From Cellvibrionaceae bacterium (lineage in GTDB: Bacteria; Pseudomonadota; Gammaproteobacteria; Pseudomonadales; Cellvibrionaceae), in NCBI GenBank assembly GCA_965262305.1, contig CBDHEY010000002.1:657135-721134 (forward strand): a stretch of 64,000 bases of DNA, read 5' to 3'. The first letter of the stretch is position 1; every line of letters begins with the position of its first letter. The translations under genes and the position numbers were made by a program. Under the pieces are notes generated by a model, which was not told the DNA's origin, ran no database searches, and saw only the letters and a program-made list of their open reading frames with translations. Positions 706 through 35,240 of this stretch are shown in pieces.

Positions 706-762
706 CCCTTGTTGATGGACTTATTCTAATCGCAGCTGTACCTAAAAGTTTTTTTCGCCAAA

Positions 763-1887: not shown

Positions 1888-1932
1888 ATTAAGTAGAATA
1901 GAAGAAATTTTGGTACTAGGTCTGTAAATTAG

Positions 1933-2616
1933 GTGGTTAAAACCGTGATAAAAAATAGAATTGCGCCTTCAATTTTGTCTGCTGATTTTGCTCGGTTGGG
2001 AGAGGAAGTCGACGCGGTGATTGATGCAGGGGCGGATTTGATTCATTTTGACGTGATGGATAATCATTACGTGCCAAACCTTTCATTTGGTCCAGTTGTA
2101 TGTAAATCTTTGATTAAATACGGTGTTTCAGTTCCGCTTGATGTTCACCTTATGGTTGAACCCGTTGATGATTTGATTGTTCAGTTTGCAGAAGCTGGCG
2201 CCACATATATCACTTTTCACCCTGAGGCTTCTAAACATCCTGACCGCTCCATTAAATTGATAAAAGATAAAGGGTGTAAGGCTGGTCTTGTTTTCACGCC
2301 GACAGCGAATCTTGATATTTTGAAGTATACCTTGGATCAATTGGACATGATTTTGCTCATGTCAGTGAACCCTGGGTTTGGAGGCCAAGCATTTCTTCCA
2401 TATGTGCTTGAACGTATTAAAACGGTTCGGTCATTGATTGAAGACGCTAATCTGGATGTTAGCTTAGAGATTGATGGGGGAGTTTCCCTTGATAATATTG
2501 CTCAAATTGCGGCAGCAGGCGCAGATACATTTGTTGCCGGATCAGCAATATTTGGGTCTGATGACTATAAACAAACTATCTCGTTGATGAAACAACGGGT
2601 AAATGATGTAAACTAA
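1933..2616 (+). CDS. rpe: Ribulose-phosphate 3-epimerase
   Basis: [16 protein letters not shown] and [17 protein letters not shown] are Rpe signatures. The ~225-aa length fits Rpe, and the gene sits upstream of trpE as in Pseudomonas. Confidence 0.92.
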
Positions 2617-2789
2617 CCCTTTTGGCGATAAAATTTTTGAAATAAGAGAGTAATAAAGTGTTCGTAACTTATTCATGTTCATGGCGTAGTTAGTCAATTC
2701 TATTCACTATAAGCCAATTTGACTATTTGAAATCCTAAGTTGCTTTAAGCTTGTAAGTTGCTTTAAGTATATAAGTTGCGAGACGCATT

Positions 2790-4274
2790 ATGACTCCAAA
2801 AGAGTTCGACCAGTTTAAACAAGCTGGTTTCAATAAAATTCCCCTTTACCGCGAAGTGTTAGCGGACACTGAAACGCCCTTATCAAGTTATCTAAAGTTG
2901 GCTCGCGGTAGTTACTCCTATCTTTTTGAATCTGTCCAAGGTGGCGAAAAATGGGGTCGATACTCGATTATTGGATTACCCGCGTCGGAGCGATTTGAAG
3001 CCTGGGGAAATCAAATAAAGGTGTTTCGTGACGGTGAATGCATTGATTCTTATGAGCACGAGGACCCCTTATCTGCGATTGAGCAACTTAAATCGAGTAT
3101 AAAAGTACCTAATATTGGTGGCTTGCCGAGCTTTTCTGGTGGCCTAGTGGGCTATTTCAGTTATGACACTGTTAGATATGTCGAGCCGAAGCTTGCTAAT
3201 TCAGTCCCTCAAGACAATCAAAACACCCCGGATATTTTATTACTCGTTTCCCAAGAAGTTCTAGTTTTCGATAACCTGAAGGGTAAGCTTCATATTATCG
3301 TTCATGCAGATCCTAACGAAGAGAATAGCTATGAGGCTGCAAAGTCCAAACTGGACAAGCTAGAAGCAAGGTTAAGTATGCCTATTCCTCAGCTACCTAT
3401 TATGCAAATGGCCCAATTTGTTGGTGAGCAGAAAGGGTTAAGTTGTGAAAAAGAGTTTGTTTCAAGTTTCGGCCGTGAAAACTTTATGTCTGCGGTTGAA
3501 CGAGTCAAAGACTACATTTTAGCGGGTGATGCCATGCAAGTGGTGCTGTCGCAAAAAATGCAACTACCTTTTGAATCAGAACCCTTAAATCTGTATCGAG
3601 CTTTGCGATGCCTTAATCCGTCGCCTTATATGTATTTTCTGGATATGGGAGATCATCAAGTAGTAGGATCTAGCCCAGAAATACTCGCTCGCCTAGAAGA
3701 TGATGAAGTAACAGTAAGGCCAATAGCTGGGACGCGTCGTAGAGGCTATGATGATGATGAAGATATTGCATTAGAAAAGGAGCTACTCAACGACCCCAAA
3801 GAAATAGCAGAACATTTAATGTTAATCGACCTTGGGCGCAATGATGTGGGTCGAGTTGCAAAAGTGGGGTCGGTATGCCTTACTGAGAAAATGATTGTCG
3901 AGCGTTATTCCCACGTAATGCATATCATCTCAAATGTCATCGGTAAACTCGATGATAACCTGTCAACAATGGATGTGCTGCGTGCCGCGTTGCCGGCAGG
4001 AACGCTCTCTGGAGCGCCGAAAATCAGAGCAATGGAAATTATTGACGAGCTTGAGCCTGAAAAACGTGGGATATATGGCGGTGCAATTGGTTATATGGCG
4101 TGGAATGGTAATATGGATACGGCCATTGCTATCCGAACAGCTGTTATTAAGGATGGAAAAATATTTGTTCAAGCGGGTGCAGGCGTAGTTGCTGATTCCG
4201 TCCCAGAACTTGAATGGAAAGAAACAATGAATAAAGCTAGGGCTTTATTCAGTGCCATAGATTGGGCAAAATAA
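2790..4274 (+). CDS. trpE: Anthranilate synthase component I
   Basis: Chorismate-binding-enzyme motifs [20 protein letters not shown] and [21 protein letters not shown]. The 494-aa length is typical for TrpE. Confidence 0.95.
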
Positions 4275-4302
4275 CGGAACAGGCGATCGAAGGAGTGGAT
4301 AA

Positions 4303-5025
4303 ATGGCAATTAAAGAGAGCGTGGTGTTGAATATGCAAGGTGAAGAACAGATTGCAAAAATGTCTGAAATTCACCATTTCAATGCGACTGAACTTGATCA
4401 TCTCAAGATACTTCGTCAGGGTACTAATGACGAGAAGATGCTAAAAACTTTCCGTGATCTTCGAACACAACTGTTTGAACAATCCGGCGGAGCCAACTTT
4501 AACTGTATGATCACTTGCGTAGCACCTGGCGGTGGGGCGACACATGTATGTCGTAACTTAGCGGCAGCTATAGCGCTTGATCGTACCAAAACATCTGTTA
4601 TTGTCGATTGTAATTTTTACTCTCCTACGGCTGAGGCGCTTTTAAGCGCTGAAATAAACGTGGGTTTATCTGATTATCTTAATTCCAAAGATATGGGTTT
4701 AGAGTACATCGTATATGCTTCAGGAATCCCTCGAGTAAGAGTCATTCCAGCAGGAAATAACGCAAGGGCTTCAGCAGAACGGGTCTCAACATTTCGCATG
4801 AATCAATTCTTAGACGAAATCAAAAGTCGCTATCCAGACCGTTTTATCTTAATAGATAGTCCAAGTATTTCTGAATATCCTGCTGACGCTAGAATGCTTG
4901 CTCAGGCGGTGGATTTTGTTATTTTGGTTGTACCTTATGGAATGGTTACACCTGCAGAAGTTCAAACTGCAATTAAGGCCATAGGTAATGAACGTTTAGC
5001 GGGTGTGGTGTTTAACAAGGTTTAG
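4303..5025 (+). CDS. BY-kinase / MinD-ParA-fold P-loop protein with a degenerate Walker A (Lys replaced by Ala); candidate PEP-CTERM-locus tyrosine-autokinase-like pseudo-ATPase
   Basis: An AAGGAG RBS lies 8 bp upstream, and the gene starts 28 bp after the trpE stop. FRDLRTQLF matches the BY-kinase N-terminal motif. CVAPGGGATHVCRNLAAAIAL sits where S-x-G-x-G-K-T would be. VIVDCNFYSP corresponds to the LIDxDxRxP motif. ILIDSPSI is Walker A' and DFVILVV is Walker B. There is no C-terminal Tyr cluster. Confidence 0.6.
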   Translation: MAIKESVVLNMQGEEQIAKMSEIHHFNATELDHLKILRQGTNDEKMLKTFRDLRTQLFEQSGGANFNCMITCVAPGGGATHVCRNLAAAIALDRTKTSVIVDCNFYSPTAEALLSAEINVGLSDYLNSKDMGLEYIVYASGIPRVRVIPAGNNARASAERVSTFRMNQFLDEIKSRYPDRFILIDSPSISEYPADARMLAQAVDFVILVVPYGMVTPAEVQTAIKAIGNERLAGVVFNKV

Positions 5026-5086: not shown

Positions 5087-6454
5087 TCACTCCGTCGGTG
5101 CATTCGCCGATATATTATATTTTTTCATTAGGTCGTAAAGTGTCGGGCGAGTTACCCCTAATTGTTTTGCCGTAGCAGATATGTTGTATTCAGTCATATT
5201 TAATGCACGCAATATTGCGGCTCTTTCTGCGTTGTAGCGCACTTCTCTCAAATTAAGGCTGAAGTTTCCATCGGAGACCAAACCTAAGTCTTCGGAAGAA
5301 ACCAATTTTTCATCTGCCATGACCACACCACGTTTAATGCGATTTTCCATTTCTCGAATGTTTCCAGGCCAATCGTAAGCTTCAATTGCCTCAATGGCTT
5401 CTGGGGAGAAACCCGTTACCGGAGCATTATTTTGTTCGACTGATCGCTGTAAAAAGTGCCTTGCAAGGAGTAATTTATCGCCTTGCCTATTTCGCAAGGG
5501 AGGGATTTCAATTTCCATTTCACATATACGGTAGAAAAGATCTTCTCGAAATGTTCCTTCATTTACCATCTCTTGAAGATTTTTGTTTGTCGCACAAACA
5601 ACGCGAACATCGACAGGAATTTCTTCTCGTCCGCCCACTCGCTCAATGACTCTTTCCTGTAAAAAGCGAAGCAGTTTAGCTTGCAACATAAGTGGCATGT
5701 CGCCAATTTCATCAAGAAAAAGTGTGCCTCCGGATGCCGTTTCTACTTTTCCTTTAGTTGTTTTTGATGCGCCAGTAAAGGCACCTTTTTCGTACCCGAA
5801 CAGTTCACTTTCCATTAGGTTTTCTGGAACTGCAGCGCAGTTAATTGCAACTAAGCGTTTAGACTTTCGCTGGCTAAAGTTATGAAGTGCACGCGCAAGG
5901 ACTTCTTTTCCTGTTCCACTTTCCCCAGTTAGCGTGCAGGTCACATCTGACGGAGCAAGCTTTTCAATCGTACGACAGATTTTTAGCATTTTGGGGTCGC
6001 ACGCGATAATGCCATCTAAAGGGGATTGTTTTTGTTCTTCGGCTTTTCTGTGCTGTTCTTCTAGCGCGTAGATATGAAAAGCTCTTTGCAGAATAAGATC
6101 GAGAGTCTCGGGGTTTACCGGTTTTTGATAGAAATCATATGCACCCATCGCGACGGCTCTTACCGCATTTTCATAGTCTGCATTGCCAGTCATGACGATA
6201 ATTTTTGTCATGGGAGAGATGCTGGATATTTCTCGAATACAGCGGAATCCTTCATCAACACCTTCATCATCAGGTGGTAATCCTAGATCCTGCAAAACAA
6301 TAGGTGGTTCATGTAGACGAATTGCAGCAATTGCTTCTTCGCGATTTGACGCAGCGATTACTTCATATTGATCGAAATGCCAACGTAGTTGGCTTTGTAA
6401 ACCTTGATCATCTTCAACAATTAAAAGTTTTGATTTTTCTTCTTGGTGAGCCAT
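5087..6454 (-). CDS. prsR: Sigma-54-dependent response regulator, PEP-CTERM-box type (PrsR-like)
   Basis: Receiver domain (LLIVEDD...VLQDLGLPPDDEG, the distinctive LGLPPD motif of PrsR). Sigma-54 interaction AAA domain (GESGTGKEV, GAFTGA, ESELFGYEKGAFTGA). C-terminal Fis-type HTH. Confidence 0.85.
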   Translation of the reverse strand: MAHQEEKSKLLIVEDDQGLQSQLRWHFDQYEVIAASNREEAIAAIRLHEPPIVLQDLGLPPDDEGVDEGFRCIREISSISPMTKIIVMTGNADYENAVRAVAMGAYDFYQKPVNPETLDLILQRAFHIYALEEQHRKAEEQKQSPLDGIIACDPKMLKICRTIEKLAPSDVTCTLTGESGTGKEVLARALHNFSQRKSKRLVAINCAAVPENLMESELFGYEKGAFTGASKTTKGKVETASGGTLFLDEIGDMPLMLQAKLLRFLQERVIERVGGREEIPVDVRVVCATNKNLQEMVNEGTFREDLFYRICEMEIEIPPLRNRQGDKLLLARHFLQRSVEQNNAPVTGFSPEAIEAIEAYDWPGNIREMENRIKRGVVMADEKLVSSEDLGLVSDGNFSLNLREVRYNAERAAILRALNMTEYNISATAKQLGVTRPTLYDLMKKYNISANAPTE

Positions 6455-24206: not shown

Positions 24207-24224
24207 TCGATTCTCATCCTTAGT

Positions 24225-24788
24225 TTATTTCGCCTTCTTTACCTTAGACTTGCGAGCGGATGTGTGCCACAAATAAGCGAAAATTACTCCGCCCAATGCG
24301 CCACCTATGTGCGCTTCGAAAGAAATGTACGCTGACACTGGTAACAACCCATAAATCATGCCACCTTCTAGTAATATCACAAGAGTTGCGTACAAAACAT
24401 AGACAATTTTTTTTTCGAAAAATGCCCTAAATATTATTAGCGTCCACATTCCAAATATTACGCCACTGGCTCCTATGTGGATTCCTGGGCGCGCGACGAG
24501 CCACACAAATAGGCCACTGAATAGCGCCAAAAAAATCAAACTACTATAAAAATAGGTTTTACCCAAACCTACTAAGAAAAATGAAAAAAGTAAAAAGCCT
24601 ATTGAATTCGAAAGTAGATGTTCAATATTACCATGAAGAAATGGCGCACTTAACACATAAAATAGGTGCTCATTAGATCTGGGCAAAACACCGAAACGAC
24701 TTAAGTTCAGTGAGAAGTAATGATCCACAATAAATACGAGAATTAAAATCAATACGATGTTTATTGCCGTGCGATAGTTTTTTAGCAA
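24225..24788 (-). CDS. Rhomboid-family intramembrane serine protease
   Basis: Six TM helices with the catalytic GASGVIFG (GxSG) and AHIGGALGG (His) motifs. 187 aa. It is the last gene of the mltB-rlpA insertion. Confidence 0.8.
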   Translation of the reverse strand: MLKNYRTAINIVLILILVFIVDHYFSLNLSRFGVLPRSNEHLFYVLSAPFLHGNIEHLLSNSIGFLLFSFFLVGLGKTYFYSSLIFLALFSGLFVWLVARPGIHIGASGVIFGMWTLIIFRAFFEKKIVYVLYATLVILLEGGMIYGLLPVSAYISFEAHIGGALGGVIFAYLWHTSARKSKVKKAK

Positions 24789-24858
24789 TTCGGCTCCAAT
24801 GGAGTTTTACTTATTTAAAAGTGCTTAAGCTTTAAAATAGTTGAATAATCAACTCAAA

Positions 24859-27800
24859 CTAGCTGTTGAACGTTTGTTGGGTTGATGTGGTTTCAACATC
24901 AATTTTTCGCAGTTCTTCTAATACTTGTTGCATTTTGTCATGCGTTCTTAAATCGATTTCTAACTTCTTATCCATACTTCTAACGAGTGGGAAGATACTT
25001 TCTTCAATTGTTTTGGCAAGTGTATTTAATATTTTATCAATTCCTGGAACGGGTTGGTTAACAACCTCGATGTTTGTTGTATTGGGTGTTGTTTTTTCTT
25101 GTGCGGTTGAAAGTTTTCGTAAACTGGCTTCGATCTGTTGAAGCTCTCTTATACCAGCTTTTTGCATATCGTTAGATGCTGTTGATTTCGCTACTTCTGT
25201 TAATGTCGAAATGTTATTTGCCAAATCAATAAGTTGTGCGACGACGCGTCCACCTATATCGGCACTGTCACCACCCATTGCTTTATTTCTCATAAAGTCT
25301 TCTTTTATTTGCTCCCAGCGCACGCGAGACTTATCTGAAAACTGATTTCTTAACTCTTCTAGTTTTAAGAGGTTAGCTTCCGCGCCGGTTGTAAGCATTT
25401 GAGCCTCACCAAGATAATGATCTTCGATCAGTTGCTGGAGCTCATTTTCATTCATTACAGAAGATACTTTCTCGGCCATCTTGTTCATGTTTCGATAGCT
25501 ACCTTGGAGTTTAAATGGTGGTTCAGTCCTATATTTATCATCTTGCGCTGCAGATGCGATATATTCTAAGTTGATTTTTAATATTACATCTTGAATGACA
25601 AAAAGCTTTTTCAGTACTGATGTTATTTCGTTCACCTCGGCCACCGAATATTGGTGGTTCAGTTCCGAAGTTACGATATTTTTCCCTTTAGCTAAATCGA
25701 TTAGCTTATATATATCTGACATTTCTCTAGTCGCTAAAGGCGCAAGAATTGCGTTAGACGTTAAGCTGTTTTCGATGTAACTCAATGCAAATTGTTCGTC
25801 CATACCGCCAAGAATATCGCCAAGGTTATAAATATCTGCACGGTTAGCCAACATATCTGGTACTTTGAATGCTTCGCCAGCTTCCGTGTAAGGGTTACCA
25901 GCCATGACAACGCAGAATTTTTTGCCTCTCATGTCATAGGTTTTAGTTTCATTTGCCCAAACCCCTTCAATACGTCTTGTACCATCGCAAAGAGAGATAA
26001 ATTTCTGTAAAAATTCTGGATGGGTATGTTGAATATCGTCGAGATAAAGCATAACGTTGTTACCCATCTCGAACGCAAGATTTACTTTCAATAATTCTTG
26101 TTTAGCTGTCGCGTTTGGTGCCTGTGATGGATCCAGGCTCAAAACATCATGTCCAAGGGAAGGGCAATTGATTTTCATGAAAATTAGCCCTAGACGATTT
26201 GCTACGTATTCCATTAACGTCGTTTTCCCATATCCGGGTGGAGAAATCATCATTAACAATCCCATTAGATCTGATCTTTTGTTTTCTCCAACGGTGCCCA
26301 TTTGTTTCGCTAAGTTATCACCGATTAACGGTAAATATGATTCATTCACTAGTCGATTACGTACGAAAGAACTAAGCGGCCGAGGTTTGTATTGATCTAG
26401 CCTCAGGTTACTCTTTTCTTGATTAATGAGTTTTTGGCGACAATGTAAATAATTTCGATATCCTAATACAGTTTCTGTTGCGTGGGTCTCCAACCTTAGT
26501 AGAAACTCATCGAGGTCAAATTTAAGGGATTGGTTCTGGATCGTTTCATGGTTACCTAGCAAGCCCGAAGCCGTGGTTTTGAGATCAATTTCGGTGTTCC
26601 TTCTTTCAATTCTCTCTTCGGTATTAATGAGTGCAATTGCTTCCGGAATATATCGCTCTAGATGTTTGAGTGATTTATCTGCGACTAGAGCTTTCAACCA
26701 GGCTTCTGTGAGTTGCCATCTTTCTGCTGGCCAACCGAGCATTTTTTCCAGCGATGTTTGTAGTTTTCGCCAGGCAGTTTCGCTCATTTCAAGTTTTAGC
26801 TGATCAACAAGTTCTCTAGCATACTTGCTTGATACAAATTCCATACGATCTCTGCTAAGTTCTTCCGTTAAGTATTCTGCGCTTCGGCGGATCGTAATGC
26901 TCGTAATATCAATAGAGTGCTTTCCTATGAATTCATTTAATGCTGATTCAATTTCATTCTCAAGTAAATTTTTCGCCATATTGCTAGCAAAAATATCGCG
27001 CATTTGCGAAGCTGTGATCGAGCGATCCCTCCAAGTTTCATAACTTAGTTGAGAATCAGAAAGTTTAGTGTTCTGCTTAAGTCGAGTAACATACTTAATA
27101 TTTGCCCAAAATATTTGGGCTATTGCGCGTGATTCTGGATCAAATTTCAATAATTCGGCATTGGTGAGAACGGGATAAATTGCCTTTATTATTTGAGCCG
27201 CGTCAAAATCGTGTATGCCTTTTTCGTAACCTTCTTTATAGAGCGGCGTAGCGAAATCTCTTACATGACTTAGTAGCAATTTTTCATCATTTATTAGCGC
27301 ACCCAGTTTGTTACTTTTCGGACTTTTTAATATTTGATATGCAAGATACTCAGCGCGATAGACGTGAGGTGATTCCGATTCTATGTTTAGATCCCAAAAA
27401 TCGCTTAGATTGTTTAGCGCAATGTCCGTGACGAGTTCGTAATAGTCTGTGCCCGATAGATGGAAATAGAGTTGATTGTTTCGAGGAATAATCGTGAGAT
27501 CAAGCTCTTGGGTATTAACACTAAACCTATGACGAGGTCCAAGTTTTATTACTTTTCCACCATCCTCATAAATATCAGCTTTGTCCCTTAATGATCTAAA
27601 GGCATTGTCTTTTAAGTGTTTTATTTTTGCACTAATGTCGTCAGCTTTAACGCTACTAGAAAGTGAATTTAGCTGATCAACCATTTCATTTATTTTTAAT
27701 ACAAGTGCATCTGACGCAAAATAAGTATTAAGCTCGTCTTGCTCTTTAAATTTCAGTATTCTCCGATCTATGCTCGCCAATATGCGCTCAGCCGCATCAA

Positions 27801-30126
27801 AAATGTTCTGTGCTTTTCGTTGTTGAGCTTCCAACAACTGTTGCTTATGAGCTTCAAATGCTTCGTAAATTTCGTCTCGTTTAGCGAGTATATCTGCTAA
27901 AAATTGATCAAATTCACTGAATTGACTTTCTAATTCTTCTAATTGAACGAGAAGCCTTGAGAGTTGTTCATCGCATTTTTCTGGGGTTGTAGCCAGGCCC
28001 AAGGCGTTATTGATACTTTGTGAAAATAGTTTGAATTGTGCGGAGAACTGTGCGATCGCTTCGTCGGAACCCAGTGCTTTGCGTTTATTTTCGGTTTTCG
28101 CTCTGCATTGATTTAGTTTTGCATAGACTTCTGAAATAGCATCAATGATTTGTGTTCGAATGGTTGAATCTTCAATTTGAATTGTAGTCATTAATTCGGA
28201 AATTAAATCTAGCGCAGACGCGGTTGACTCAATTTCTTCTAATATCGGCTCAATGCTAGCTTTAGTTTTGGATTTATCTAGTTCTTTCGTAAAGGAATCT
28301 ATTTTTAATAGATAAGGTTTGATCGCCTCAGGGGAATTTAAAAACTGGACCGTTTTTTGTGAAAGGTTTTCTTCAAAAATTTTAAGTTCTGAATCGAGAG
28401 AGGCGATCCTTTCTTTATCAATATAACGATATTCAGAAATAGTTGCCAAGTGTCCGCGTTGTTGTCGTATACGCTTTAATGCTGCTACATAATCTCCAGT
28501 GTCTTCCCAGTTTTCCGGTCGAATGTGAGATTGAATGTCTTTTTGAGTTTTCTCTGCAGTGTCGAGCGCTTCTGCAGATTTTGCTTGAATAGATTGAATT
28601 TTTTCAAACTCGTCAATTACTAATTCAGCAGTTTCGCCGACGTCTTGCAAGCAGTTTTTTATTTCACTTGTTTCGTCTGAATTTAACCAATAATAACTAT
28701 CGAATAACTGTCTCGAATTTCTTGCCAGCTCTTCATAAAGAAAAGCTGTCACTTTTTGATTTTCAATCGCACGACAAATACTTAGTAGGTCAGATATCCC
28801 TCTTACGAGCTCCGCATTACCAATACGCCCATAAAAATTTTGCTTTTGTGGAATTTTAGCGGCGAACTCATCACTTATATAGGGAGTTTTCCAAACTTGC
28901 ATAGGATGAACCCGTGTAGGTTCATTTTCTGCCGTGAAGATAACGAGTGTTCCATCATCTGCAAGGGCATAACCGTGTCCATAGATAGGATTTTGTAGGG
29001 TCTTGTTTATCAGGTTGTAGGTTAAGAGTCCAACTATTCCATCTTCTGGTTCGTAAAAAATATATAAGACGTCTTCACCATTAGGCGATCTAATTGTGCG
29101 CTTATAAGTAAGAGAGCTATTATTAGCTTCAAATTTTTTGTGTTCTCCTGTTTGTAAATAATATCCACCAGGAAAGATTACACCATGATCTTCTGGAAGC
29201 TGCACGCAAGACTGACCTAATTCATCAATTCTAACCACTTCTTTAGTTAGTTTATTGAAAATTAAGTATCGCCATTGTTCCTCGCGATATGGTAGGACCT
29301 TAATTAGAATTAACGAGCCAACTGTGGCGTATGCCATTTCTGCATCATCTAAGGATTGTGTCTTGTCTTCCACTGGCTCGTTGTATATTCCTAGGCCGTC
29401 TTCCGTGTTGTTTTCTACCTTGACCGTTAGCGTTCCGCCCACAGTTTCAACAAAGACTTCATCCTTAATATTTGCGTGGGGGTGACGGCCGTGGATAGTG
29501 TCTTCTCTTGTTATGTTCTTCCATTCAAAGTCATTTTTAGGGGGCAGTTGTAAATCTCTTTCACCGCGGTTGTCGATATATTCAATTTTTTTTCCATCCG
29601 GTGATATGCCCCAGCGAAACACCCGAATATCTTCTATACGATCGCCAATTTGAAACCCTGCGAGTAATTTCCCATTTTTATTTACCAGTTGTAGAAGTTT
29701 TGCTTTTTTGTAATATCGATATAATTCAGAAAAATCATTCAGAAACCGAGTTTCGTATAGAAACGTTTGGCCTAGAGGTATCTCTTCTAAACTAGTTTCG
29801 TCAGCATCGAGTAGTTTAACAACCGAGAAAACATCTTCAACTTTGGTTTCTTTTTTGAGTCCGATGAACACGTTGTATCCGAATATCAATAATTCACCGG
29901 CTTGTACGATGTCTCTTGCAATTGAATTATTTCCGGTTCTAATACGGACTCGGCCTATAATAGCAAGTTCAGTACTGCCAAATTCCTTTAAACGACTTTG
30001 GTTTAAATTGTTACTTAGTTCACGAAGTTTTTTTCCTTGTTCATCTAAGCGTCTGCGGATAATTTCATACGCGCCACCTTCGGCTACGGCATTATCGATA
30101 ATGTTGCTGCTATTGTCGGTTTCCAA
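24859..30126 (-). CDS. Giant (1755 aa) multidomain protein: beta-rich N-terminal domain, ~800-aa coiled-coil region and C-terminal AAA_5 (MoxR/McrB/dynein-type) ATPase
   Basis: Single uninterrupted ORF. Walker A ISPPGYGKTTL, Walker B VMLYLDDIQH and an AAA_5-type sensor/Arg region VVMAGNPYTEAGEAFKVPDMLANRADI, all near nt 25840-26270. Long heptad-rich stretches fall between residues ~450 and ~1250. The N-terminal ~450 aa are rich in beta-strand-type sequence (YIFYEPEDGIVGLLTYNL...). Confidence 0.75.
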   Translation of the reverse strand: METDNSSNIIDNAVAEGGAYEIIRRRLDEQGKKLRELSNNLNQSRLKEFGSTELAIIGRVRIRTGNNSIARDIVQAGELLIFGYNVFIGLKKETKVEDVFSVVKLLDADETSLEEIPLGQTFLYETRFLNDFSELYRYYKKAKLLQLVNKNGKLLAGFQIGDRIEDIRVFRWGISPDGKKIEYIDNRGERDLQLPPKNDFEWKNITREDTIHGRHPHANIKDEVFVETVGGTLTVKVENNTEDGLGIYNEPVEDKTQSLDDAEMAYATVGSLILIKVLPYREEQWRYLIFNKLTKEVVRIDELGQSCVQLPEDHGVIFPGGYYLQTGEHKKFEANNSSLTYKRTIRSPNGEDVLYIFYEPEDGIVGLLTYNLINKTLQNPIYGHGYALADDGTLVIFTAENEPTRVHPMQVWKTPYISDEFAAKIPQKQNFYGRIGNAELVRGISDLLSICRAIENQKVTAFLYEELARNSRQLFDSYYWLNSDETSEIKNCLQDVGETAELVIDEFEKIQSIQAKSAEALDTAEKTQKDIQSHIRPENWEDTGDYVAALKRIRQQRGHLATISEYRYIDKERIASLDSELKIFEENLSQKTVQFLNSPEAIKPYLLKIDSFTKELDKSKTKASIEPILEEIESTASALDLISELMTTIQIEDSTIRTQIIDAISEVYAKLNQCRAKTENKRKALGSDEAIAQFSAQFKLFSQSINNALGLATTPEKCDEQLSRLLVQLEELESQFSEFDQFLADILAKRDEIYEAFEAHKQQLLEAQQRKAQNIFDAAERILASIDRRILKFKEQDELNTYFASDALVLKINEMVDQLNSLSSSVKADDISAKIKHLKDNAFRSLRDKADIYEDGGKVIKLGPRHRFSVNTQELDLTIIPRNNQLYFHLSGTDYYELVTDIALNNLSDFWDLNIESESPHVYRAEYLAYQILKSPKSNKLGALINDEKLLLSHVRDFATPLYKEGYEKGIHDFDAAQIIKAIYPVLTNAELLKFDPESRAIAQIFWANIKYVTRLKQNTKLSDSQLSYETWRDRSITASQMRDIFASNMAKNLLENEIESALNEFIGKHSIDITSITIRRSAEYLTEELSRDRMEFVSSKYARELVDQLKLEMSETAWRKLQTSLEKMLGWPAERWQLTEAWLKALVADKSLKHLERYIPEAIALINTEERIERRNTEIDLKTTASGLLGNHETIQNQSLKFDLDEFLLRLETHATETVLGYRNYLHCRQKLINQEKSNLRLDQYKPRPLSSFVRNRLVNESYLPLIGDNLAKQMGTVGENKRSDLMGLLMMISPPGYGKTTLMEYVANRLGLIFMKINCPSLGHDVLSLDPSQAPNATAKQELLKVNLAFEMGNNVMLYLDDIQHTHPEFLQKFISLCDGTRRIEGVWANETKTYDMRGKKFCVVMAGNPYTEAGEAFKVPDMLANRADIYNLGDILGGMDEQFALSYIENSLTSNAILAPLATREMSDIYKLIDLAKGKNIVTSELNHQYSVAEVNEITSVLKKLFVIQDVILKINLEYIASAAQDDKYRTEPPFKLQGSYRNMNKMAEKVSSVMNENELQQLIEDHYLGEAQMLTTGAEANLLKLEELRNQFSDKSRVRWEQIKEDFMRNKAMGGDSADIGGRVVAQLIDLANNISTLTEVAKSTASNDMQKAGIRELQQIEASLRKLSTAQEKTTPNTTNIEVVNQPVPGIDKILNTLAKTIEESIFPLVRSMDKKLEIDLRTHDKMQQVLEELRKIDVETTSTQQTFNS

Positions 30127-30214
30127 AACTGTTTTCCTTCAAAAAATGACTATACTTTGGTCCGAGAAATACTCAACAAGTAAATAGTGAGACAGAAATT
30201 TCTCTTGGTATAGC

Positions 30215-30754
30215 TTAGACTCTATAAGGGTCGTCCGATATTAAATACGCAATGATTTCAGCTTTGTGGTTAGATGATTGAACTATTGATCGCATAGCTT
30301 TTATTTGCTCAAAGTTTTCTTCAAACTGTTTTTGATAAAGTTCTTCGAGCATATCAGTCGTTTTAGCCTCCCGAACTTTTCTTTGCCAAACATCTGTAAA
30401 TATCTCGTTAAGTTTCAACGATAATCCACTATTTTTGAGTAGTTCCCACTCGCCATGATCCAACCAAATGGCATTTCTACTTGGGCTCAGATCCAAGCGA
30501 TGTTCTGTGGAAGCGGCTATTCTATATTTAATCATGAGATTTCCAGATTCAGGGCACAGTAGCGCCCTGTTTGACTCAGTAGCTTCAATCTCGAAATCAC
30601 CTACTTCATCCCTGATAGAACTTTGTTCCTTCCATTTCAGATAGTCCTGTAAATATAAAAAATTACCTTTACAGTTTGAACATCGCTTAGTGGGTAGAAA
30701 GGGTTCTAGAAAATGGTTAACCAACTTACCTTTGTTACAGCTAGTGCATTTCAT
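30215..30754 (-). CDS. Zinc-ribbon protein (zf-TFIIB-like C4 ribbon at the N-terminus plus a second, Cys-depleted copy)
   Basis: N-terminal C-x2-C...C-x2-C (CTSCNKG...CSNCKG). A second module, LLCPESGNLM...AIWLDHGEWELL, resembles the GvWlD.gEl zinc-ribbon tail but lacks three Cys. Confidence 0.55.
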   Translation of the reverse strand: MKCTSCNKGKLVNHFLEPFLPTKRCSNCKGNFLYLQDYLKWKEQSSIRDEVGDFEIEATESNRALLCPESGNLMIKYRIAASTEHRLDLSPSRNAIWLDHGEWELLKNSGLSLKLNEIFTDVWQRKVREAKTTDMLEELYQKQFEENFEQIKAMRSIVQSSNHKAEIIAYLISDDPYRV

Positions 30755-30769
30755 TTTAATCGCTCGTTC

Positions 30770-31009
30770 TTACAACCCGAATTTGGACTTGATTTCGCTA
30801 ACTCGCTGAATCATAGTTTGGTCCAGGTCTTTATCATTGAGCCTTGATATAATATTGCTTAGAACACGTTTCTCGTTCTCATCAACTACACCATCTCGCA
30901 GCGCAACGTCTACGAGGCCGTTTAATTCATCTACATCTAGCTTGCCATCATCTGCAAAACAATTGATAGATTTGAATGTCAGCTCTAAATAATCGCGTGA
31001 TTCGCTCAT
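30770..31009 (-). CDS. Small acidic hypothetical protein (79 aa; TerB/DjlA-N-like repeat character)
   Basis: Tightly packed between the flotillin and zinc-ribbon genes (15-16 bp gaps). DGKLDVDELNGLVDVALRDGVVDENEKRVL pattern. Confidence 0.4.
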   Translation of the reverse strand: MSESRDYLELTFKSINCFADDGKLDVDELNGLVDVALRDGVVDENEKRVLSNIISRLNDKDLDQTMIQRVSEIKSKFGL

Positions 31010-31025
31010 TTTGTTCTCCTTTTTC

Positions 31026-32975
31026 TTAAGGTTTTTCAGGTGTGTTTACATTTTGTGTGCCATTTTTAGGTTCCATAAACTTGGTAAGCAGAGCGTTGAT
31101 GGTGTCACTTTTTCCTGCTAATCCATCTATTGCTTTACCGATGGAAAGAGATTTCGCGAAATTGTTGAAGAAGTGATCTTCTCCGCCAACGATGTCGATT
31201 TTCGCTTTTTCAAGAGCTGTTGCAAGTACTTCGGCATTTTCTTTAGCAATGTTCTCTCCGGCATCTATTGCTGCAAGTGCTTCCTTCAGAGCCGTTTCTA
31301 AAGACATTCTAAACTCTTCGTGTTCTCTCGCTTTATCACTCATACTATTCATCGCATCGAATTTTTCTGTTAGTCCATCAGCTTCTGCTTTGAATTGTTC
31401 TCTCGTAACCTCGGCTTTAGCAGTACCAACTTGCTTCTCTGCTAGTGCTTCAGATTCTCCCTTCGCTGCGATTATTGATGCTTCTGCAAAACCTTCTTTT
31501 TCTTTTGCTGTTGCTTTGGCTTCTAAAACCTTTGCCTCTGCAATGCCTTCTTTTTCTAACGCATCGGCTTTAGCTTCTTGTATTTTTGCTTCAGCCAACC
31601 CGGGCGCAGCCACTTCTGCCTGAACTCCTTCTGCAAGTCGCTTCTTGGAATCGGCTTCTTTCGCAGCAGCATCAAGGTTTGCTTGGGCTATTGTAATTAT
31701 CTCTGCTGATTTGTGTTTCGCCGCTATTTCTTCAGCCTCAGCAGCTTTTATTTGTTTAACCTTTTCTTCTTCAGCTTTAGCTTCTGCATCAAGTATTTTT
31801 ACTTGTTTTTGACGGTCTGCTTCGGAAACTTCTCTAACCTCATTTATTCTTTCTTCTTCGATTGCAACTGTTTTATCAACAGCAATTCGTTCTCGGATAA
31901 CATTGGCAATTTCTTTCTTTTTAACTTCGATCGCTTTTTCAGCTTCAATGCGTTGAAGTTCCACTTCCCTCTCACGAGATACAATTTCAAGATCTCTTGC
32001 TCGAGCTACTTTTTCTTGTTCAATAGCAACTGCTCTCAATCGATTTTGTTCAGCAACTTCGATTTCACGCTGTTGGTTTTCTTTCTGGACGGAAAGGTCT
32101 TGATTAACTGAAATAGTTGTTTCTTCAGATTTCTTGCGTTCTTCTTCTTGTACTTTAATAGTTTCAGCTTCTTCTCTAGCTTCAATCGATGCAACTTCAC
32201 GTGATTGTCTAGCAATGGCATCTTTTTCTTGCTTGTCGAGTTCTAGAAGAGCCTCTTTGGTCTCGACATTCTTTTTAGTTATAGCTAGTTCTTCGTCTCG
32301 CTCGAGAATATTTGTTCTCACATTTTGGGTTGCGGTAAGTTCGGTAATCTTTTTTATACCTTCTGCGTCCAAAATATTGTTTGGATCTAGATCGGATTTT
32401 GGTGTTTGTTCTAAATAATCAATTGCAACATCTTCAAGAACATAACCATTTAGATCGTCACCAATAACCTGCACTATCTTCTCTCTGAACTCAAGGCGGT
32501 TTTCAAATAGTTGTACGAATTCGATTTGTTTTCCCACCGTTTTTAACGCTTCGGAGAATTTAGCATTAAAGAGTTCGTTAACCGCTTCCTTGTCTGAAGC
32601 TCGGGCAGCTCCAATGGATTTAGCAACTTTTAAAACATCTTCTGCAGTTTCATTTACTCTTAGGTAAAATGCTACGGTGATGTCAGCTCGCATATTGTCT
32701 GCACAAATAAGGCCGTCTTTACCTCTGCGATCAACTTCGAGCGTGATAAGTGAAATTCTCATTAACTCTTTTTTATGAATTACCGGCCATACTAAGGATC
32801 CTGTAAATGTGACCTTTGGTACTGACTTCATAGTGTTTACAATAAGCGCAGTACCTTGTTCAACCTTAATATAAAAAGCTTTAAATACTGTGATAATCGC
32901 CATTAGTAAAATAAATGCTACGACGATTATTGCGGCGATAAATGCTACCCCGGAAAGACCTGATAATTCGGCCAT
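31026..32975 (-). CDS. Flotillin-family SPFH/band-7 protein (YqiK/FloT-like) with a long E/A/K-rich coiled-coil tail
   Basis: N-terminal TM helix. SPFH domain. An extended EA-rich coiled coil (EAEKAIEVKKKEIANV...) with internal imperfect repeats (KEGIAEAKVLEAKATAKEKEGFAEA). 649 aa. Confidence 0.85.
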   Translation of the reverse strand: MAELSGLSGVAFIAAIIVVAFILLMAIITVFKAFYIKVEQGTALIVNTMKSVPKVTFTGSLVWPVIHKKELMRISLITLEVDRRGKDGLICADNMRADITVAFYLRVNETAEDVLKVAKSIGAARASDKEAVNELFNAKFSEALKTVGKQIEFVQLFENRLEFREKIVQVIGDDLNGYVLEDVAIDYLEQTPKSDLDPNNILDAEGIKKITELTATQNVRTNILERDEELAITKKNVETKEALLELDKQEKDAIARQSREVASIEAREEAETIKVQEEERKKSEETTISVNQDLSVQKENQQREIEVAEQNRLRAVAIEQEKVARARDLEIVSREREVELQRIEAEKAIEVKKKEIANVIRERIAVDKTVAIEEERINEVREVSEADRQKQVKILDAEAKAEEEKVKQIKAAEAEEIAAKHKSAEIITIAQANLDAAAKEADSKKRLAEGVQAEVAAPGLAEAKIQEAKADALEKEGIAEAKVLEAKATAKEKEGFAEASIIAAKGESEALAEKQVGTAKAEVTREQFKAEADGLTEKFDAMNSMSDKAREHEEFRMSLETALKEALAAIDAGENIAKENAEVLATALEKAKIDIVGGEDHFFNNFAKSLSIGKAIDGLAGKSDTINALLTKFMEPKNGTQNVNTPEKP

Positions 32976-33002
32976 GTTGTGCTCCTTAGTTACAATAATG
33001 TA

Positions 33003-33656
33003 TTAGTTAGAATTGAATTCGTTTTCAGAAATTACTGAATAGGTTCCTGATTCTTCATGTCTTTCGAGTAACACTACCTTGTCTCCTTTGTTGAATATTT
33101 TATTGTTTCGGCTTCTCACTCTTAGAAGTAATCCTGCTCCGCCGTCTTCGAGAATAGCTTCTCCAAATTTGTCATCAACACGGCTGGACCTAACTACTGC
33201 AACTTGGCCAATAACGTGTTTTATTGAAGGCGCTTCCATTTGTTTAAAAAGCTTCCTTAAGGGTTTGATTACAATTGTTGTAATCAGAACCGATATATAA
33301 AAAACGCATGCCATAATTCCAATGCCTACAACGAACTCTAGCGTGCGACCCGGAATAAAAGGGTTTATTAGTGCGACGGCAATATAACAGAGTATCCATC
33401 CTGTAAGTGACAAAATGGTGATGATGATAGGTAGAGGCACTCCATTTAATCCTATCTTCATAAGTACGCCACCGATCCCGCCTATGTTTCCTTCCGCTAT
33501 TTCAATTTCAAAAGCATCTATATCAAAAACCCCGAGTATCGATACAAGCCAGAATAAAACACTAAACCCCAAAAAAAACGTAAAAACAACTGTTGGAAAT
33601 GAGCTAATGTTGTTGTAGAACGGGCTCATCCCTTCATGTAATAAAATTGCAAACAT
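33003..33656 (-). CDS. NfeD/YqiJ-like membrane protein (flotillin partner; C-terminal OB-fold)
   Basis: Several TM helices followed by a C-terminal soluble beta-domain (GDKVVLLERHEESGTYSVI). Immediately upstream of the flotillin gene, as in yqiJK and yuaFG operons. Confidence 0.7.
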   Translation of the reverse strand: MFAILLHEGMSPFYNNISSFPTVVFTFFLGFSVLFWLVSILGVFDIDAFEIEIAEGNIGGIGGVLMKIGLNGVPLPIIITILSLTGWILCYIAVALINPFIPGRTLEFVVGIGIMACVFYISVLITTIVIKPLRKLFKQMEAPSIKHVIGQVAVVRSSRVDDKFGEAILEDGGAGLLLRVRSRNNKIFNKGDKVVLLERHEESGTYSVISENEFNSN

Positions 33657-33726
33657 GTCACACCCTTAACAATGGTTATTGAATTGGGCAATATTAATCG
33701 CGCACGTCCATTGTGCAAAGTAGAAA

Positions 33727-34413
33727 CTATTTTTTGTTTTTGATTCTCTCTAGCACACTTGAAGCGTCTGTGCCTTTGGGCGCGATTCCAGCTTCTTCAA
33801 GTTTAACCTGAAGGTCTTTATCTTCGAATTCGTCAGCAAGCTCGGATGCGGCTTTCATTTTTGCGGCTTTCATTGCTTGTTTTTCTTTAATGCGTTCTAG
33901 TGAATCCATAGCTGTTCGAAGCTTTGAGTTGGAACCGCTATGCCTCTCCGCGACGGCTTCTTGAGCCCGCTGCACGCTTTCAGTGGCTTTGACTGTGTCG
34001 ACCTGTTGCTGCATACGTTTGATGTTCGTTTCAGCTTGCTTAATCGATAAGCGCAATTGCTCTGCTTGCGCATGGAAACCTTTTATCGCTTGATCTTCTG
34101 TTGCTAAATTATTTTCCAGATCGGCAATTTTTTGAGCGATCTCTAACGCTAGATTTTCATCATTTTTATCGAGCGCTTGGGAAGCATAGTCTTCGTATTC
34201 GCTAATTTGCTTTTTTATCGAGCTAAACTTTTCCTCACCTATTTTTTTGTGTGCGATGATCGAAGCTAAGCCTTCCTTACTGTTTTTAACTTCTTCGGAC
34301 GCATCTCTTAATTCTTGATCCAAAATTCTGAGTGCCTGACTATCCGTAATTGCTTCGCCGGCTTCATTAATTCCGCCTCTAAGAGCTGTTATCATCTTTG
34401 CCCAAACATTCAT
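33727..34413 (-). CDS. PspA/IM30 (Vipp1) family protein
   Basis: 228-aa all-alpha coiled-coil protein. N-terminal MNVWAKMITALRGGINEAGEAITD fits the PspA amphipathic helix region. ESCRT-III-like heptads throughout. Confidence 0.8.
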   Translation of the reverse strand: MNVWAKMITALRGGINEAGEAITDSQALRILDQELRDASEEVKNSKEGLASIIAHKKIGEEKFSSIKKQISEYEDYASQALDKNDENLALEIAQKIADLENNLATEDQAIKGFHAQAEQLRLSIKQAETNIKRMQQQVDTVKATESVQRAQEAVAERHSGSNSKLRTAMDSLERIKEKQAMKAAKMKAASELADEFEDKDLQVKLEEAGIAPKGTDASSVLERIKNKK

Positions 34414-34425
34414 TTTAATGCTCCT

Positions 34426-35058
34426 TTATGCTGTTACTTCTGCAGATAAATTTAAAAATTCACTATAAGCCTCTGTAGCTTGAATAACGTTAGAAGCTAA
34501 AACTTCTATTTCAAGTATCACATTGCTAATTAGAGATGATGCGCTCAACGCCCCGAACATGTGGTAGTGATCTGGATGCCCTTTAACGCTCTCCAGGCAA
34601 ATCGTTGATAGTGGAAAATACTTATGTGTTTTAAGTACCGCCTCGTTAAAGCTGGCTTTATCAACCACGTCTTCGATTGACCATAGAACACATTCAACAA
34701 TGATTTGGTCACCAACAACAGATAAGTAAACAGGTAAATCGCCAAATTCTCGCATTTCGATTAAAAGGCTTGGTTCTATGCCATTTATGAGCTCGATTCT
34801 AGCCTGTCCAGTTCTAAATAGTGCTTGTTCTTTGAGCTCTTTAAGTAGTTCCACGGTAGTCCACGATTTTGTAACACCTTTCATAGGTTCTTCTCCTAGT
34901 TGCTGTTTTAAACCTTCCGCGGTCCGCAATTTCATCTCAAGTTTTGAGAGTGTTTTGCTGTGCTGTGGGAGAACCCAGACTTCCTTTTTTATAAGTCCTT
35001 GCTCGCGCAGTCTTTTGCGGTATTCGCGTTGATAATGTGCTGAAGATTTCGCTTTCAT
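34426..35058 (-). CDS. YjfI-like (DUF2170) domain protein with a basic N-terminal extension
   Basis: The C-terminal ~130 aa (LPVYLSVVGDQIIVECVLW...FNEAVLKTHKYFPLSTICL...MFGALSASS) fit the DUF2170 pattern found upstream of pspA-like yjfJ in E. coli. Residues 1-60 are Lys/Arg-rich. The family assignment is from memory. Confidence 0.5.
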   Translation of the reverse strand: MKAKSSAHYQREYRKRLREQGLIKKEVWVLPQHSKTLSKLEMKLRTAEGLKQQLGEEPMKGVTKSWTTVELLKELKEQALFRTGQARIELINGIEPSLLIEMREFGDLPVYLSVVGDQIIVECVLWSIEDVVDKASFNEAVLKTHKYFPLSTICLESVKGHPDHYHMFGALSASSLISNVILEIEVLASNVIQATEAYSEFLNLSAEVTA

Positions 35059-35075
35059 GAAGTTACTCTATAGTA

Positions 35076-35130
35076 TTACATGTGATTTTTCAATAAATTA
35101 CATGTAATTTTTATAATTATTACATGTGAT
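35076..35130. promoter_or_regulatory. Three copies of a palindromic TTACATGT(G/A)AT motif at exact 22-bp spacing upstream of the flotillin/PspA island
   Basis: Copies at 35076-35086, 35098-35108 (ATTACATGTAAT, a perfect palindrome) and 35120-35130. They lie 18-72 bp upstream of the first gene of the eight-gene minus-strand cluster. Confidence 0.5.
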
Positions 35131-35240
35131 AATTTTTTACTGTTTGGATAGAAGTCTAATTTATTGATTTTAAAGAACTTTATTTTTTGGGAGCTGGCGA
35201 TGGTTTATGCCATCGCATGAATGGATTATGACAGGAGGTT

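Follow-up and report, generated by a model that had tools for sequence, protein, structure and literature searches.

A probable bac-type operon joining PspA, a flotillin and a giant AAA+ ATPase to a rhomboid protease in a Cellvibrionaceae bacterium, with a candidate operator at its promoter

The closest described relative of the system considered here is the bac operon of Pseudomonas aeruginosa. The genes PA3732-PA3729 received the name bac, an abbreviation of 'biofilm-associated cluster', in 2008 by Macé (PMC2587700), and the PspA-like PA3731 was found to be required for biofilm formation, swarming, rhamnolipids and virulence and to be induced by osmotic shock (PMC2587700). In strain PA14 bacABCDEF (PA3732-PA3727; PA14_16140-16200) forms one transcript by reverse-transcription PCR (Wallart 2024, PMC10948618), and BacB-F are raised 6 to 13.5-fold in a bacA::Tn mutant (PMC10948618). 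PA3728-PA3732 are also up in all phage-infected samples (PMC12041424), and PA3731 is up on exposure to S. aureus PSM toxins (bioRxiv 10.1101/2023.01.29.526047). The same operon was described computationally as DUF2170-PspA-YqiJ-flotillin-giant AAA+ (Ravi et al. 2024, PMC11237479). Here we report a variant of this bac, or CesT-Tir-PspA-YqiJ-flotillin-AAA+, operon from a Cellvibrionaceae bacterium, in a stretch of 64,000 nucleotides (the window; contig CBDHEY010000002.1, positions 657,135 to 721,134) in which eight minus-strand open reading frames, running from 35058 down to 24225, are placed between mltB and rlpA.

The link to bac was made because an NCBIfam model flagged the first protein as BacA, and the literature confirmed it. 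By sequence comparison, the first five core components are orthologous to P. aeruginosa bacABCDE: the first four genes of bac are orthologues in the same order (BacA, BacB, BacC and the flotillin BacD), and the giant BacE follows them. In P. paraeruginosa, a close relative of P. aeruginosa (locus L039), the core aligns gene for gene with the window, and paired palindromes with the -35/-10 geometry of the window lie upstream of bacA. The giant proteins of the Pseudomonas-group loci scanned here (L028-L039) are 54-55% identical to that of the window. Three additional accessory genes set the window variant apart from bac: those for a TerB-like and a zinc-ribbon protein lie between flotillin and giant gene, and that for a rhomboid comes after the giant gene. 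The window also lacks the PLD gene and differs from bac in genomic position. The operon of PMC11237479 has the same five-component architecture, and its assignment of a propeller and an AAA+ domain to the giant protein is confirmed here by structure prediction; the abbreviated flotillin-YqiJ-AAA+ form mentioned there was also seen among our loci. The system itself is thus already known, both from that work and as bacABCDEF (PMC10948618), and the view of a first-pass annotation, made from the sequence alone, that no described system combines these genes with a giant AAA_5 protein has to be given up.

The published accounts do leave room for additions. The rhomboid is not mentioned in the main text and the one supplementary file of PMC11237479. 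In the passages of that paper considered here, a zinc ribbon comes up in connection with the B. subtilis ydj operon and otherwise only in a figure legend that lists PspA-neighbouring domains, and the TerB-like partner, the operator and the N-terminal domain considered below are not described for this operon. Across the searched text of the bac and Ravi papers the rhomboid, zinc-ribbon and small acidic genes are absent, and a literature search for YqiK/YqiJ with AAA+ or rhomboid gave no paper on that combination. As far as these texts extend, the rhomboid, zinc-ribbon and TerB-like genes are recurring accessory members beyond the published accounts.

Conservation of the neighbourhood was assessed in 82 loci, made up of two metagenome loci and the 80 genome loci that scored best among at least 571 hits, by searching their six-frame open reading frames with jackhmmer profiles seeded by the window proteins; frequencies count only loci with enough flanking DNA. 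Each of the 80 genome loci shares 51% identity or more with the query, and the majority come from Gammaproteobacteria, a weakness of the argument that follows, in that the frequencies are no unbiased census. The giant-protein family comprises more than 5,500 proteins at E <= 1e-10 among 8,000 candidates, and a scan with two exact peptide motifs from the giant protein picked out at least 571 species-representative genomes. Immediately upstream of the giant gene there is a flotillin gene in all 76 evaluable loci, and a YqiJ-like gene is near it in 72/72. PspA (52/71) and DUF2170 (51/71) genes are near it in most, with the PspA gene directly downstream of DUF2170 in 50 of 71 evaluable loci (the gap in the window is 12 bp). 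The rhomboid (32/69), the 79-aa protein (20/69) and the zinc-ribbon protein (19/69) are found near the giant gene less often, and all seven partners occur together, as in the window, in 7/69. The operon core is present in at least five phyla: a Hymenobacter record reads 'chaperone Tir', PspA/IM30, DUF1449, hypothetical protein and 'DNA repair ATPase'; a Streptomyces record has a 'flotillin family protein' and a 'DNA repair ATPase'; and a Deinococcus record lists two hypothetical proteins, the second of 652 aa, followed by a 'DNA repair protein'. Because the YqiJ-like, flotillin and giant genes are strictly coupled across phyla, we regard the core genes as a conserved module; their co-occurrence is far beyond chance.

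These names bear on one alternative, that the juxtaposition is accidental or that the giant protein is a DNA-repair ATPase unrelated to its neighbours. Databases do call the protein a 'DNA repair ATPase', and the Pfam text for DUF3686 speaks of an 'ATPase involved in DNA repair'. However, neither Pfam nor Foldseek found a nuclease, helicase or DNA-binding domain in the giant protein, nothing experimental was found to back the name, with a full-text literature search for DUF3686 coming back empty, and the linkage to flotillin (76/76) and to the YqiJ-like gene (72/72) is kept across phyla. The database name is without support, and we give this alternative practically no weight. The first-pass annotation had, conversely, pointed to a functional unit and taken scattered genes, or a giant gene frequently without flotillin/PspA neighbours, as signs of a chance juxtaposition; neither was seen, the giant gene never being found without a flotillin neighbour in the 76 evaluable loci and PspA being nearby in 52 of 71. 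It had also suggested a role in envelope stress, which fits the responses of the Pseudomonas orthologues to osmotic shock (PMC2587700), PSM toxins (bioRxiv 10.1101/2023.01.29.526047) and phage (PMC12041424). We therefore consider it probable that the eight genes form one bac-type operon and act as an inducible inner-membrane stress-response module.

The region upstream of the first gene spans 182 bp and has three 12-bp palindromes, ATYACATGTRAT, at 35075-35086, 35097-35108 and 35119-35130, spaced by 22 bp; beyond these three at the promoter there are no further matches in the 64-kb window. The palindromes interleave with a sigma-70-like -35 element, TTGAAA (35093-35088), and a -10 element, TAGAGT (35070-35065). 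As the end of the -10 element is 6 nt from the ATG at 35058 and a Shine-Dalgarno sequence is absent, the operon mRNA is probably leaderless. This arrangement recurs. Once the start codons of the related DUF2170 genes were reset to the conserved Met, 49/51 loci whose DUF2170 protein carries the N-terminal domain had at least one site and 45 had at least two, with the proximal site starting at -28/-29 and the distal one at -50 to -53 relative to the start codon. Across the loci, 1.87 Mb in total, the motif YYACATGTRR has 99 matches, about 92 of them at the 5' ends of DUF2170 genes. The promoters share a common layout: a site, a TTGAC-like -35, a second site in the 17-bp spacer, a TAnnnT -10, 6-7 nt, and CATG; a Shine-Dalgarno sequence was found in none of the aligned promoters. 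Tandem palindromes with a matching -35/-10 layout are found in P. paraeruginosa (L039 5645-5695) and in L001 (5049-5104), the closest relative. The motif is absent from the cluster in 29/29 loci lacking DUF2170, from loci whose DUF2170 has no N-terminal extension, and from 14 kb around E. coli yjfI. Hence, the tandem ATTACATGTAAT palindromes, which are found only where the DUF2170 protein bears the N-terminal domain, look like a conserved operator overlapping a sigma-70 promoter. A sigma-54 promoter was rejected for the window: the only candidate in the intergenic region, TGGCAT-N8-CGC, has the wrong spacing and lies inside a hairpin after mltB (35197-35216). The sigma-70-like promoter is preferred because its layout is conserved and the sigma-54-like element is misspaced.

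The protein encoded directly behind this region has two parts: residues 1-48 (nt 34915-35058) are a conserved basic N-terminal domain, and residues 65-202 (nt 34453-34866) are the DUF2170, or CesT-Tir-like, chaperone domain. Its alignment to the NCBIfam model NF050185 ('biofilm formation regulator BacA') covers positions 1-205 of 206 and reaches 290 bits, short of the 300 set as cut-off; by this measure the protein is a close homologue just outside the Pseudomonas-tuned equivalog threshold. E. coli YjfI matches it at 9e-19. Over about 50 loci the N-terminal domain, of about 48 residues and with the consensus KSSAHYQREYRxRLREQGLVKKEVWILPE, is more conserved than the DUF2170 core, and it has a weak likeness to the Pfam MazE-like family (18/29 members match, best E 0.0012). 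We infer that it binds DNA. The simplest reading is that BacA-type proteins are autorepressors in which the chaperone domain would make DNA binding depend on the state of PspA; it draws on the pairing of operator and N-terminal domain and on the derepression in the bacA::Tn mutant. The crystallised BacA (PDB 8q8o, 146 aa) aligns only to residues 65-203 of the window protein (1.5e-36), and PA3732 was taken as a 16-kDa protein in 2008 (PMC2587700). For both reasons the published BacA structure seems to be based on a truncated gene model, and the RpoN site proposed for bac is probably based on it likewise. Neither the crystallised BacA of 146 aa nor the 16-kDa gene model of PA3732 includes the N-terminal domain, whose counterpart in L039 lies at 5696-5875. 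The second protein of the operon is 32% identical to E. coli YjfJ (E 1e-34).

The third and fourth proteins, of 217 and 649 aa, gave no match with Pfam or NCBIfam. The first-pass labels of NfeD/YqiJ and flotillin nonetheless hold by direct comparison. The 217-aa protein has membrane helices and, at its C-terminus, an OB-like domain. A profile built from 76 of its homologues aligns with E. coli YqiJ at an hhalign probability of 90% (E 1.4e-6, 139 columns); YqiJ and YuaF are considered SPFH-associated NfeD homologues (PMC2636767). The 649-aa protein is assigned to the flotillins because its BLASTP alignment with E. coli YqiK (2e-42, 28% identity over 454 aa, residues 12-451) spans the SPFH domain and YqiK carries the Pfam domains Band_7 and Flot. 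It is made up of an N-terminal membrane anchor, the SPFH domain, a coiled coil and an Ala/Glu-repeat C-terminal region; a PDB sequence search with it gave no relevant match. A 54-nt tandem repeat with 70% identity (31479-31586) in the 3' part of its gene encodes Ala/Glu/Lys-rich 18-residue units, typical of flotillin C-termini.

The giant protein combines a propeller with a single AAA+ module. The AlphaFold2 model of residues 1-600 (pLDDT, the model's confidence score, 79) shows an N-terminal helix, a beta-propeller at about 55-413 and long helices, and Foldseek matched it to WD40-type and other propellers with a probability of about 1. The model of residues 840-1755 (pLDDT 75.5) comprises an all-helical domain, one AAA+ core and a helical tail; its top PDB matches are the MoxR-type NorQ and CbbQ (E 1.9e-3, probability 1.0), with further matches to ClpA, Skd3 and RuvB. 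By sequence the module matches Pfam AAA (2.4e-7) slightly better than AAA_5 (2.9e-6, which passes its cut-off), and it weakly matches the Walker A region of Rix7 and p97 D1; a PDB sequence search with the whole giant-protein profile gave no relevant match. The AAA_5 label of the first-pass annotation is thus fair and not clear-cut: the structural matches and the AAA_5 score speak for it, and the better score of Pfam AAA speaks against it. Residues 1251-1450 are the protein's most conserved part. The Walker A motif, GYGKT (residues 1298-1302), is canonical, while in the Walker B motif, LYLDD (residues 1360-1364; nt 26035-26049), Asp replaces the usual catalytic Glu, and this DD is invariant in 17 aligned homologues (the window protein and 16 relatives, 62-73% identity). 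A further motif, AGNPYTEAGEAFKVPDMLANRAD, resembles the MoxR signature NPxE...P.A.LDRF.

The rhomboid is a six-helix protein translated from a TTG start preceded by GGAG. Its catalytic residues, Ser108 (GASG), His160 (AHIGG) and the H57xxxN61 motif, are all present and are at least 95% conserved in 36 cluster-linked rhomboids; by motif criteria it can be taken as an active intramembrane serine protease. A rhombosortase identity was rejected (31.8 bits against a cut-off of 84). The rhomboid gene is recurrent and, judged from a 4-nt overlap of its start with the stop of the giant gene in 14 loci, often translationally coupled to the giant gene. In two eukaryotic assemblies, the mitochondrial SLP2-PARL-YME1L (SPY) and the erlin-RHBDL4-p97 of the endoplasmic reticulum, an SPFH scaffold, a rhomboid and an AAA+ protein meet at one membrane platform, RHBDL4 being associated with erlins. 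By analogy with both, the operon could instead encode a quality-control hub for membrane proteins, in which the flotillin/NfeD cage would corral clients, the rhomboid cleave them and the giant AAA+ protein extract or unfold the fragments, with PspA merely protecting the membrane during extraction. One operon holding an SPFH protein, an active rhomboid and an AAA+ ATPase, the coupling in 14 loci and the core triad without PspA in about a quarter of loci suit such a hub; bacterial rhomboids are reported to act in quality control of orphan membrane proteins (PMC7232013) and RHBDL4 to work with p97 (PMC9437926). However, over half of the loci, that of P. aeruginosa among them, have no rhomboid; the AAA+ module looks MoxR-like and unlike a classical unfoldase; and a fused protease domain is absent. 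We regard this possibility as rather unlikely in its own right. It overlaps with, and does not exclude, the reading as a membrane-stress module, the main difference being the primary substrate.

The other two accessory proteins are small. The 79-aa protein has two invariant DG..D..E motifs and matches Pfam TerB at 0.0075 and 17 bits, below the gathering cut-off of 24.4; in its family 13/18 members match TerB (best 5.8e-5) and 8/18 match EF-hand_7. An EF-hand reading was rejected since the loops, by eye, misfit the canonical 12-residue pattern, and 'TerB-like' was kept. The zinc-ribbon protein has an intact N-terminal ribbon with conserved C3, C6, C25 and C28, a degenerate second ribbon (WLDxGEW) and a helical tail; its gene frequently adjoins that of the 79-aa protein, whose position varies among loci.

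A PLD-family gene follows the giant or rhomboid gene in 28/82 loci. It was exposed by all-against-all clustering of neighbouring open reading frames, a procedure that otherwise yielded largely shadow-frame noise. In P. paraeruginosa a single-HKD PLDc_2 gene (L039 15216-15923, 1e-29) starts 2 nt after the giant gene's stop and is presumably bacF; in the window the rhomboid gene stands in that place. The PLD gene, a feature ascribed to some Proteobacteria only, is optional and does not define the bac-type operon. Defence systems often contain large ATPases and PLD-family nucleases, and the first-pass annotation had raised phage defence. As a dedicated abortive-infection system, the operon would use the giant ATPase to sense infection and the membrane proteins to kill or protect the cell. 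This is improbable: PADLOC-DB 2.0 gave only weak coiled-coil matches of PspA to SMC-like models (E >= 1e-4) and none for the other seven proteins, phage records held no copy, and only 13 of 72,556 plasmid records did, mostly megaplasmids or chromids. Moreover, core housekeeping genes surround the cluster, G+C shows no break and marks of mobile elements are absent; its gene order is stable over phylum-level distances, unlike that of typical defence islands, and classical Psp systems are phage-induced too, yet are no immune systems.

For the operation of the membrane-stress module we propose the following scheme. The first protein would be a two-domain autorepressor, a dimer of its basic N-terminal domain binding the tandem ATTACATGTAAT palindromes and so covering the -35 and -10 of the sigma-70 promoter that gives the leaderless transcript, while its CesT-like domain would bind the PspA-like protein. 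Membrane damage would pull PspA to the bilayer, changing the BacA-PspA state and lifting repression, in a partner switch analogous to that of PspA and PspF. The YqiJ-like protein and the flotillin could then form a membrane-anchored SPFH cage or microdomain, with PspA polymerising as an ESCRT-III-like coat on the stressed bilayer. In the giant protein, propeller and coiled coils would serve as adaptor and spacer, and the MoxR-like AAA+ ring would remodel or recycle the SPFH and PspA assemblies. The rhomboid might cut transmembrane segments within the microdomain, and the TerB-like and zinc-ribbon proteins might be optional adaptors. Taken jointly, two claims, that BacA-type proteins are DNA-binding autorepressors acting via ATTACATGTAAT with PspA setting the switch, and that the operon encodes an SPFH-rhomboid-AAA+ platform like SPY and erlin-RHBDL4-p97 with PspA attached, are possible, and we offer the combination tentatively.

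Several points weigh against this scheme. The paFlo3 (flotillin) mutant of PA14 has about 20% less biofilm and no strong stress phenotype (PMC13086221), and the BacA-BacB interaction is cited only as unpublished (PMC10948618). With regard to the regulation, the similarity of the N-terminal domain to the DNA-binding MazE-like family is below threshold, and the profile of that domain found nothing in the PDB. A sigma-54 promoter was proposed for bac (PMC2587700, PMC10948618), and the derepression reported for bacA::Tn (PMC10948618) might stem from polarity of, or read-through from, the transposon. As for the ATPase, the cluster has no VWA gene, the usual companion of MoxR ATPases, and the DD Walker B may mean that ATP turnover is slow or switch-like.

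The eight genes, whose coordinates, order and products proved to be as the first-pass annotation had given them (Table 1), are co-directional and tightly spaced, with gaps of 12, 70, 27, 16, 15, 88 and 70 bp and no internal terminator found. Five of the eight proteins (DUF2170, PspA, zinc-ribbon, giant and rhomboid) were identified outright by Pfam. The cluster breaks up the cell-wall gene block rodA-mltB-rlpA-dacA: on the mltB side lies rsfS-rlmH-PBP2-rodA-mltB, and on the rlpA side rlpA-dacA-ybeD-lipB-lipA. G+C is uniform at 0.37-0.41 over the cluster and its immediate flanks, no tRNA gene was found there, and the sole match among flanking repeats, 20 nt at 85% identity, is chance-like; on these grounds a recent horizontal island was rejected. 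A hairpin, GCGATGG-CATAAA-CCATCGC (35197-35216), lies 25 nt past the mltB stop without a T-run and may mark the end of the mltB transcript.

Table 1. Genes of the operon, its promoter region and the parts of the giant ATPase, in window coordinates or protein residues
Feature	Position	Strand	Basis
DUF2170 / BacA-type protein, 210 aa	34426-35058	-	Pfam DUF2170 5e-47
PspA/IM30 protein, YjfJ/BacB type, 228 aa	33727-34413	-	Pfam PspA_IM30 5e-48
YqiJ/YuaF-type short NfeD homologue (BacC type), 217 aa	33003-33656	-	hhalign against YqiJ
Flotillin-family SPFH protein (YqiK/BacD/PaFlo3 type), 649 aa	31026-32975	-	BLASTP against YqiK
Small acidic TerB-like protein, 79 aa, accessory	30770-31009	-	sub-threshold Pfam TerB
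Zinc-ribbon protein, 179 aa, accessory	30215-30754	-	Pfam Zn_ribbon_TFIIB 1e-6
Giant ATPase (BacE type), 1755 aa	24859-30126	-	DUF3686 5e-202, DUF7902 and AAA
Giant ATPase: N-terminal helix and beta-propeller (DUF3686)	residues 34-479, nt 28690-30027	-	Pfam, AlphaFold, Foldseek
Giant ATPase: DUF7902 and long coiled coils	residues ~480-850	-	Pfam/model
Giant ATPase: helical domain, confident prediction	residues ~924-1240	-	AlphaFold model
Giant ATPase: single MoxR-like AAA+ module	residues ~1250-1460, nt 25747-26379	-	Pfam, AlphaFold, Foldseek
Giant ATPase: helical C-terminus	residues beyond the AAA+ module	-	AlphaFold model
Rhomboid protease, 187 aa, accessory	24225-24788	-	Pfam Rhomboid 9e-18
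Putative promoter/operator region	35065-35130	-	palindromes and sigma-70-like -35/-10

The genomic position itself invites a different explanation, namely that the cluster serves cell-wall growth or division through its place in the rodA-mltB-rlpA-dacA block and a possible co-transcription with rlpA. The rlpA start is 18 bp past the rhomboid stop (24207-24224) with no terminator in between; given this, part of the transcription of rlpA-dacA in this lineage may come from read-through of the stress operon. The mltB-rlpA position is also that of L001, whose giant protein is 72% identical to the window's. Among the 82 loci, however, L001 is the only related one to share it: mltB and rlpA are not near the cluster in any of the others, L002, the next closest relative (69% identity), has a reduced cluster at an unrelated locus, and Pfam found a periplasmic peptidoglycan-related domain in none of the eight proteins. 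With a single related locus of the 82 sharing the position, it implies no cell-wall link, and we hold that explanation to be very improbable; together with the DNA-repair and chance explanations it is effectively excluded. The insertion is old and lineage-specific, to judge from the flat G+C, the lack of a tRNA gene and of repeats and the restriction of the position to L001, and it is uninformative on function. L001 has an additional gene (1458-4919) for a 1153-aa protein with cadherin/Big_9 repeats between mltB and the bacA-type gene, so that further cargo has gathered at the same insertion site. The reduced cluster of L002 (5814-15448) keeps DUF2170 with two palindromes and the YqiJ-like, flotillin, zinc-ribbon and giant genes, and is without an adjacent PspA, the 79-aa gene and the rhomboid; evidently, the DUF2170 regulator is able to persist without a neighbouring pspA.

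The bac operon is widespread, and in P. aeruginosa it influences biofilm formation, swarming and virulence. Among the leads that its window variant adds, those of most use are the operator with the BacA N-terminal domain and the recurrent, often coupled rhomboid. The former, an overlooked domain paired with a candidate operator, offers a testable model of membrane-stress sensing. If the autorepressor reading is true, the published sigma-54 model of bac regulation would be wrong, and our comparison points to a truncated gene model behind the published work on structure and promoter. The recurrence beside the ATPase of a rhomboid with intact catalytic motifs suggests that intramembrane proteolysis is part of the machine. 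More generally, the operon is an accessible bacterial setting for the cooperation of an SPFH cage, an ESCRT-III-like polymer, a rhomboid and an AAA+ motor.

Beyond bac, there are several known systems with which parts of the operon can be compared. In E. coli, yqiJ-yqiK (NfeD-like and flotillin) and yjfI-yjfJ (DUF2170 and a PspA paralogue) are pairs that each have homologues here; in contrast to the window, the two pairs are unlinked, the giant ATPase is absent, YjfI (133 aa) is without the N-terminal domain, the yjfI locus is without palindromes, and yjfIJ is part of the polyamine-linked yjfIJKLMC operon. The B. subtilis pspA-ydjGHI (samGHI) operon couples PspA to an SPFH protein and a zinc-ribbon protein in membrane stress (PMC8581546; bioRxiv 10.64898/2026.02.06.704340). 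Its partner families differ, being the TPM-domain YdjH, the cytosolic SPFH protein YdjI and the double-ribbon YdjG, and DUF2170, YqiJ, AAA+ and rhomboid are absent; set apart on these descriptions, it is analogous, and not orthologous, to the window operon. The SPY and erlin-RHBDL4-p97 assemblies have separately encoded partners and a classical AAA protein (a protease or p97) in place of a MoxR-like one; their likeness to the proposed platform is a functional analogy only and no sign of common descent of the assemblies. PspA has the ESCRT-III fold and is here encoded with an ATPase that could remodel it, as in the ESCRT-III/Vps4 system, though the window ATPase is MoxR-like and not Vps4-like, with no MIT domain detected. 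Finally, the cluster is without PspF, PspB and PspC domains and its sigma-54 promoter is not convincing; it is therefore not a classical Psp system. The sequestration of the regulator PspF on PspA in the classical PspFABC system is, at the same time, a precedent for the regulation proposed here.

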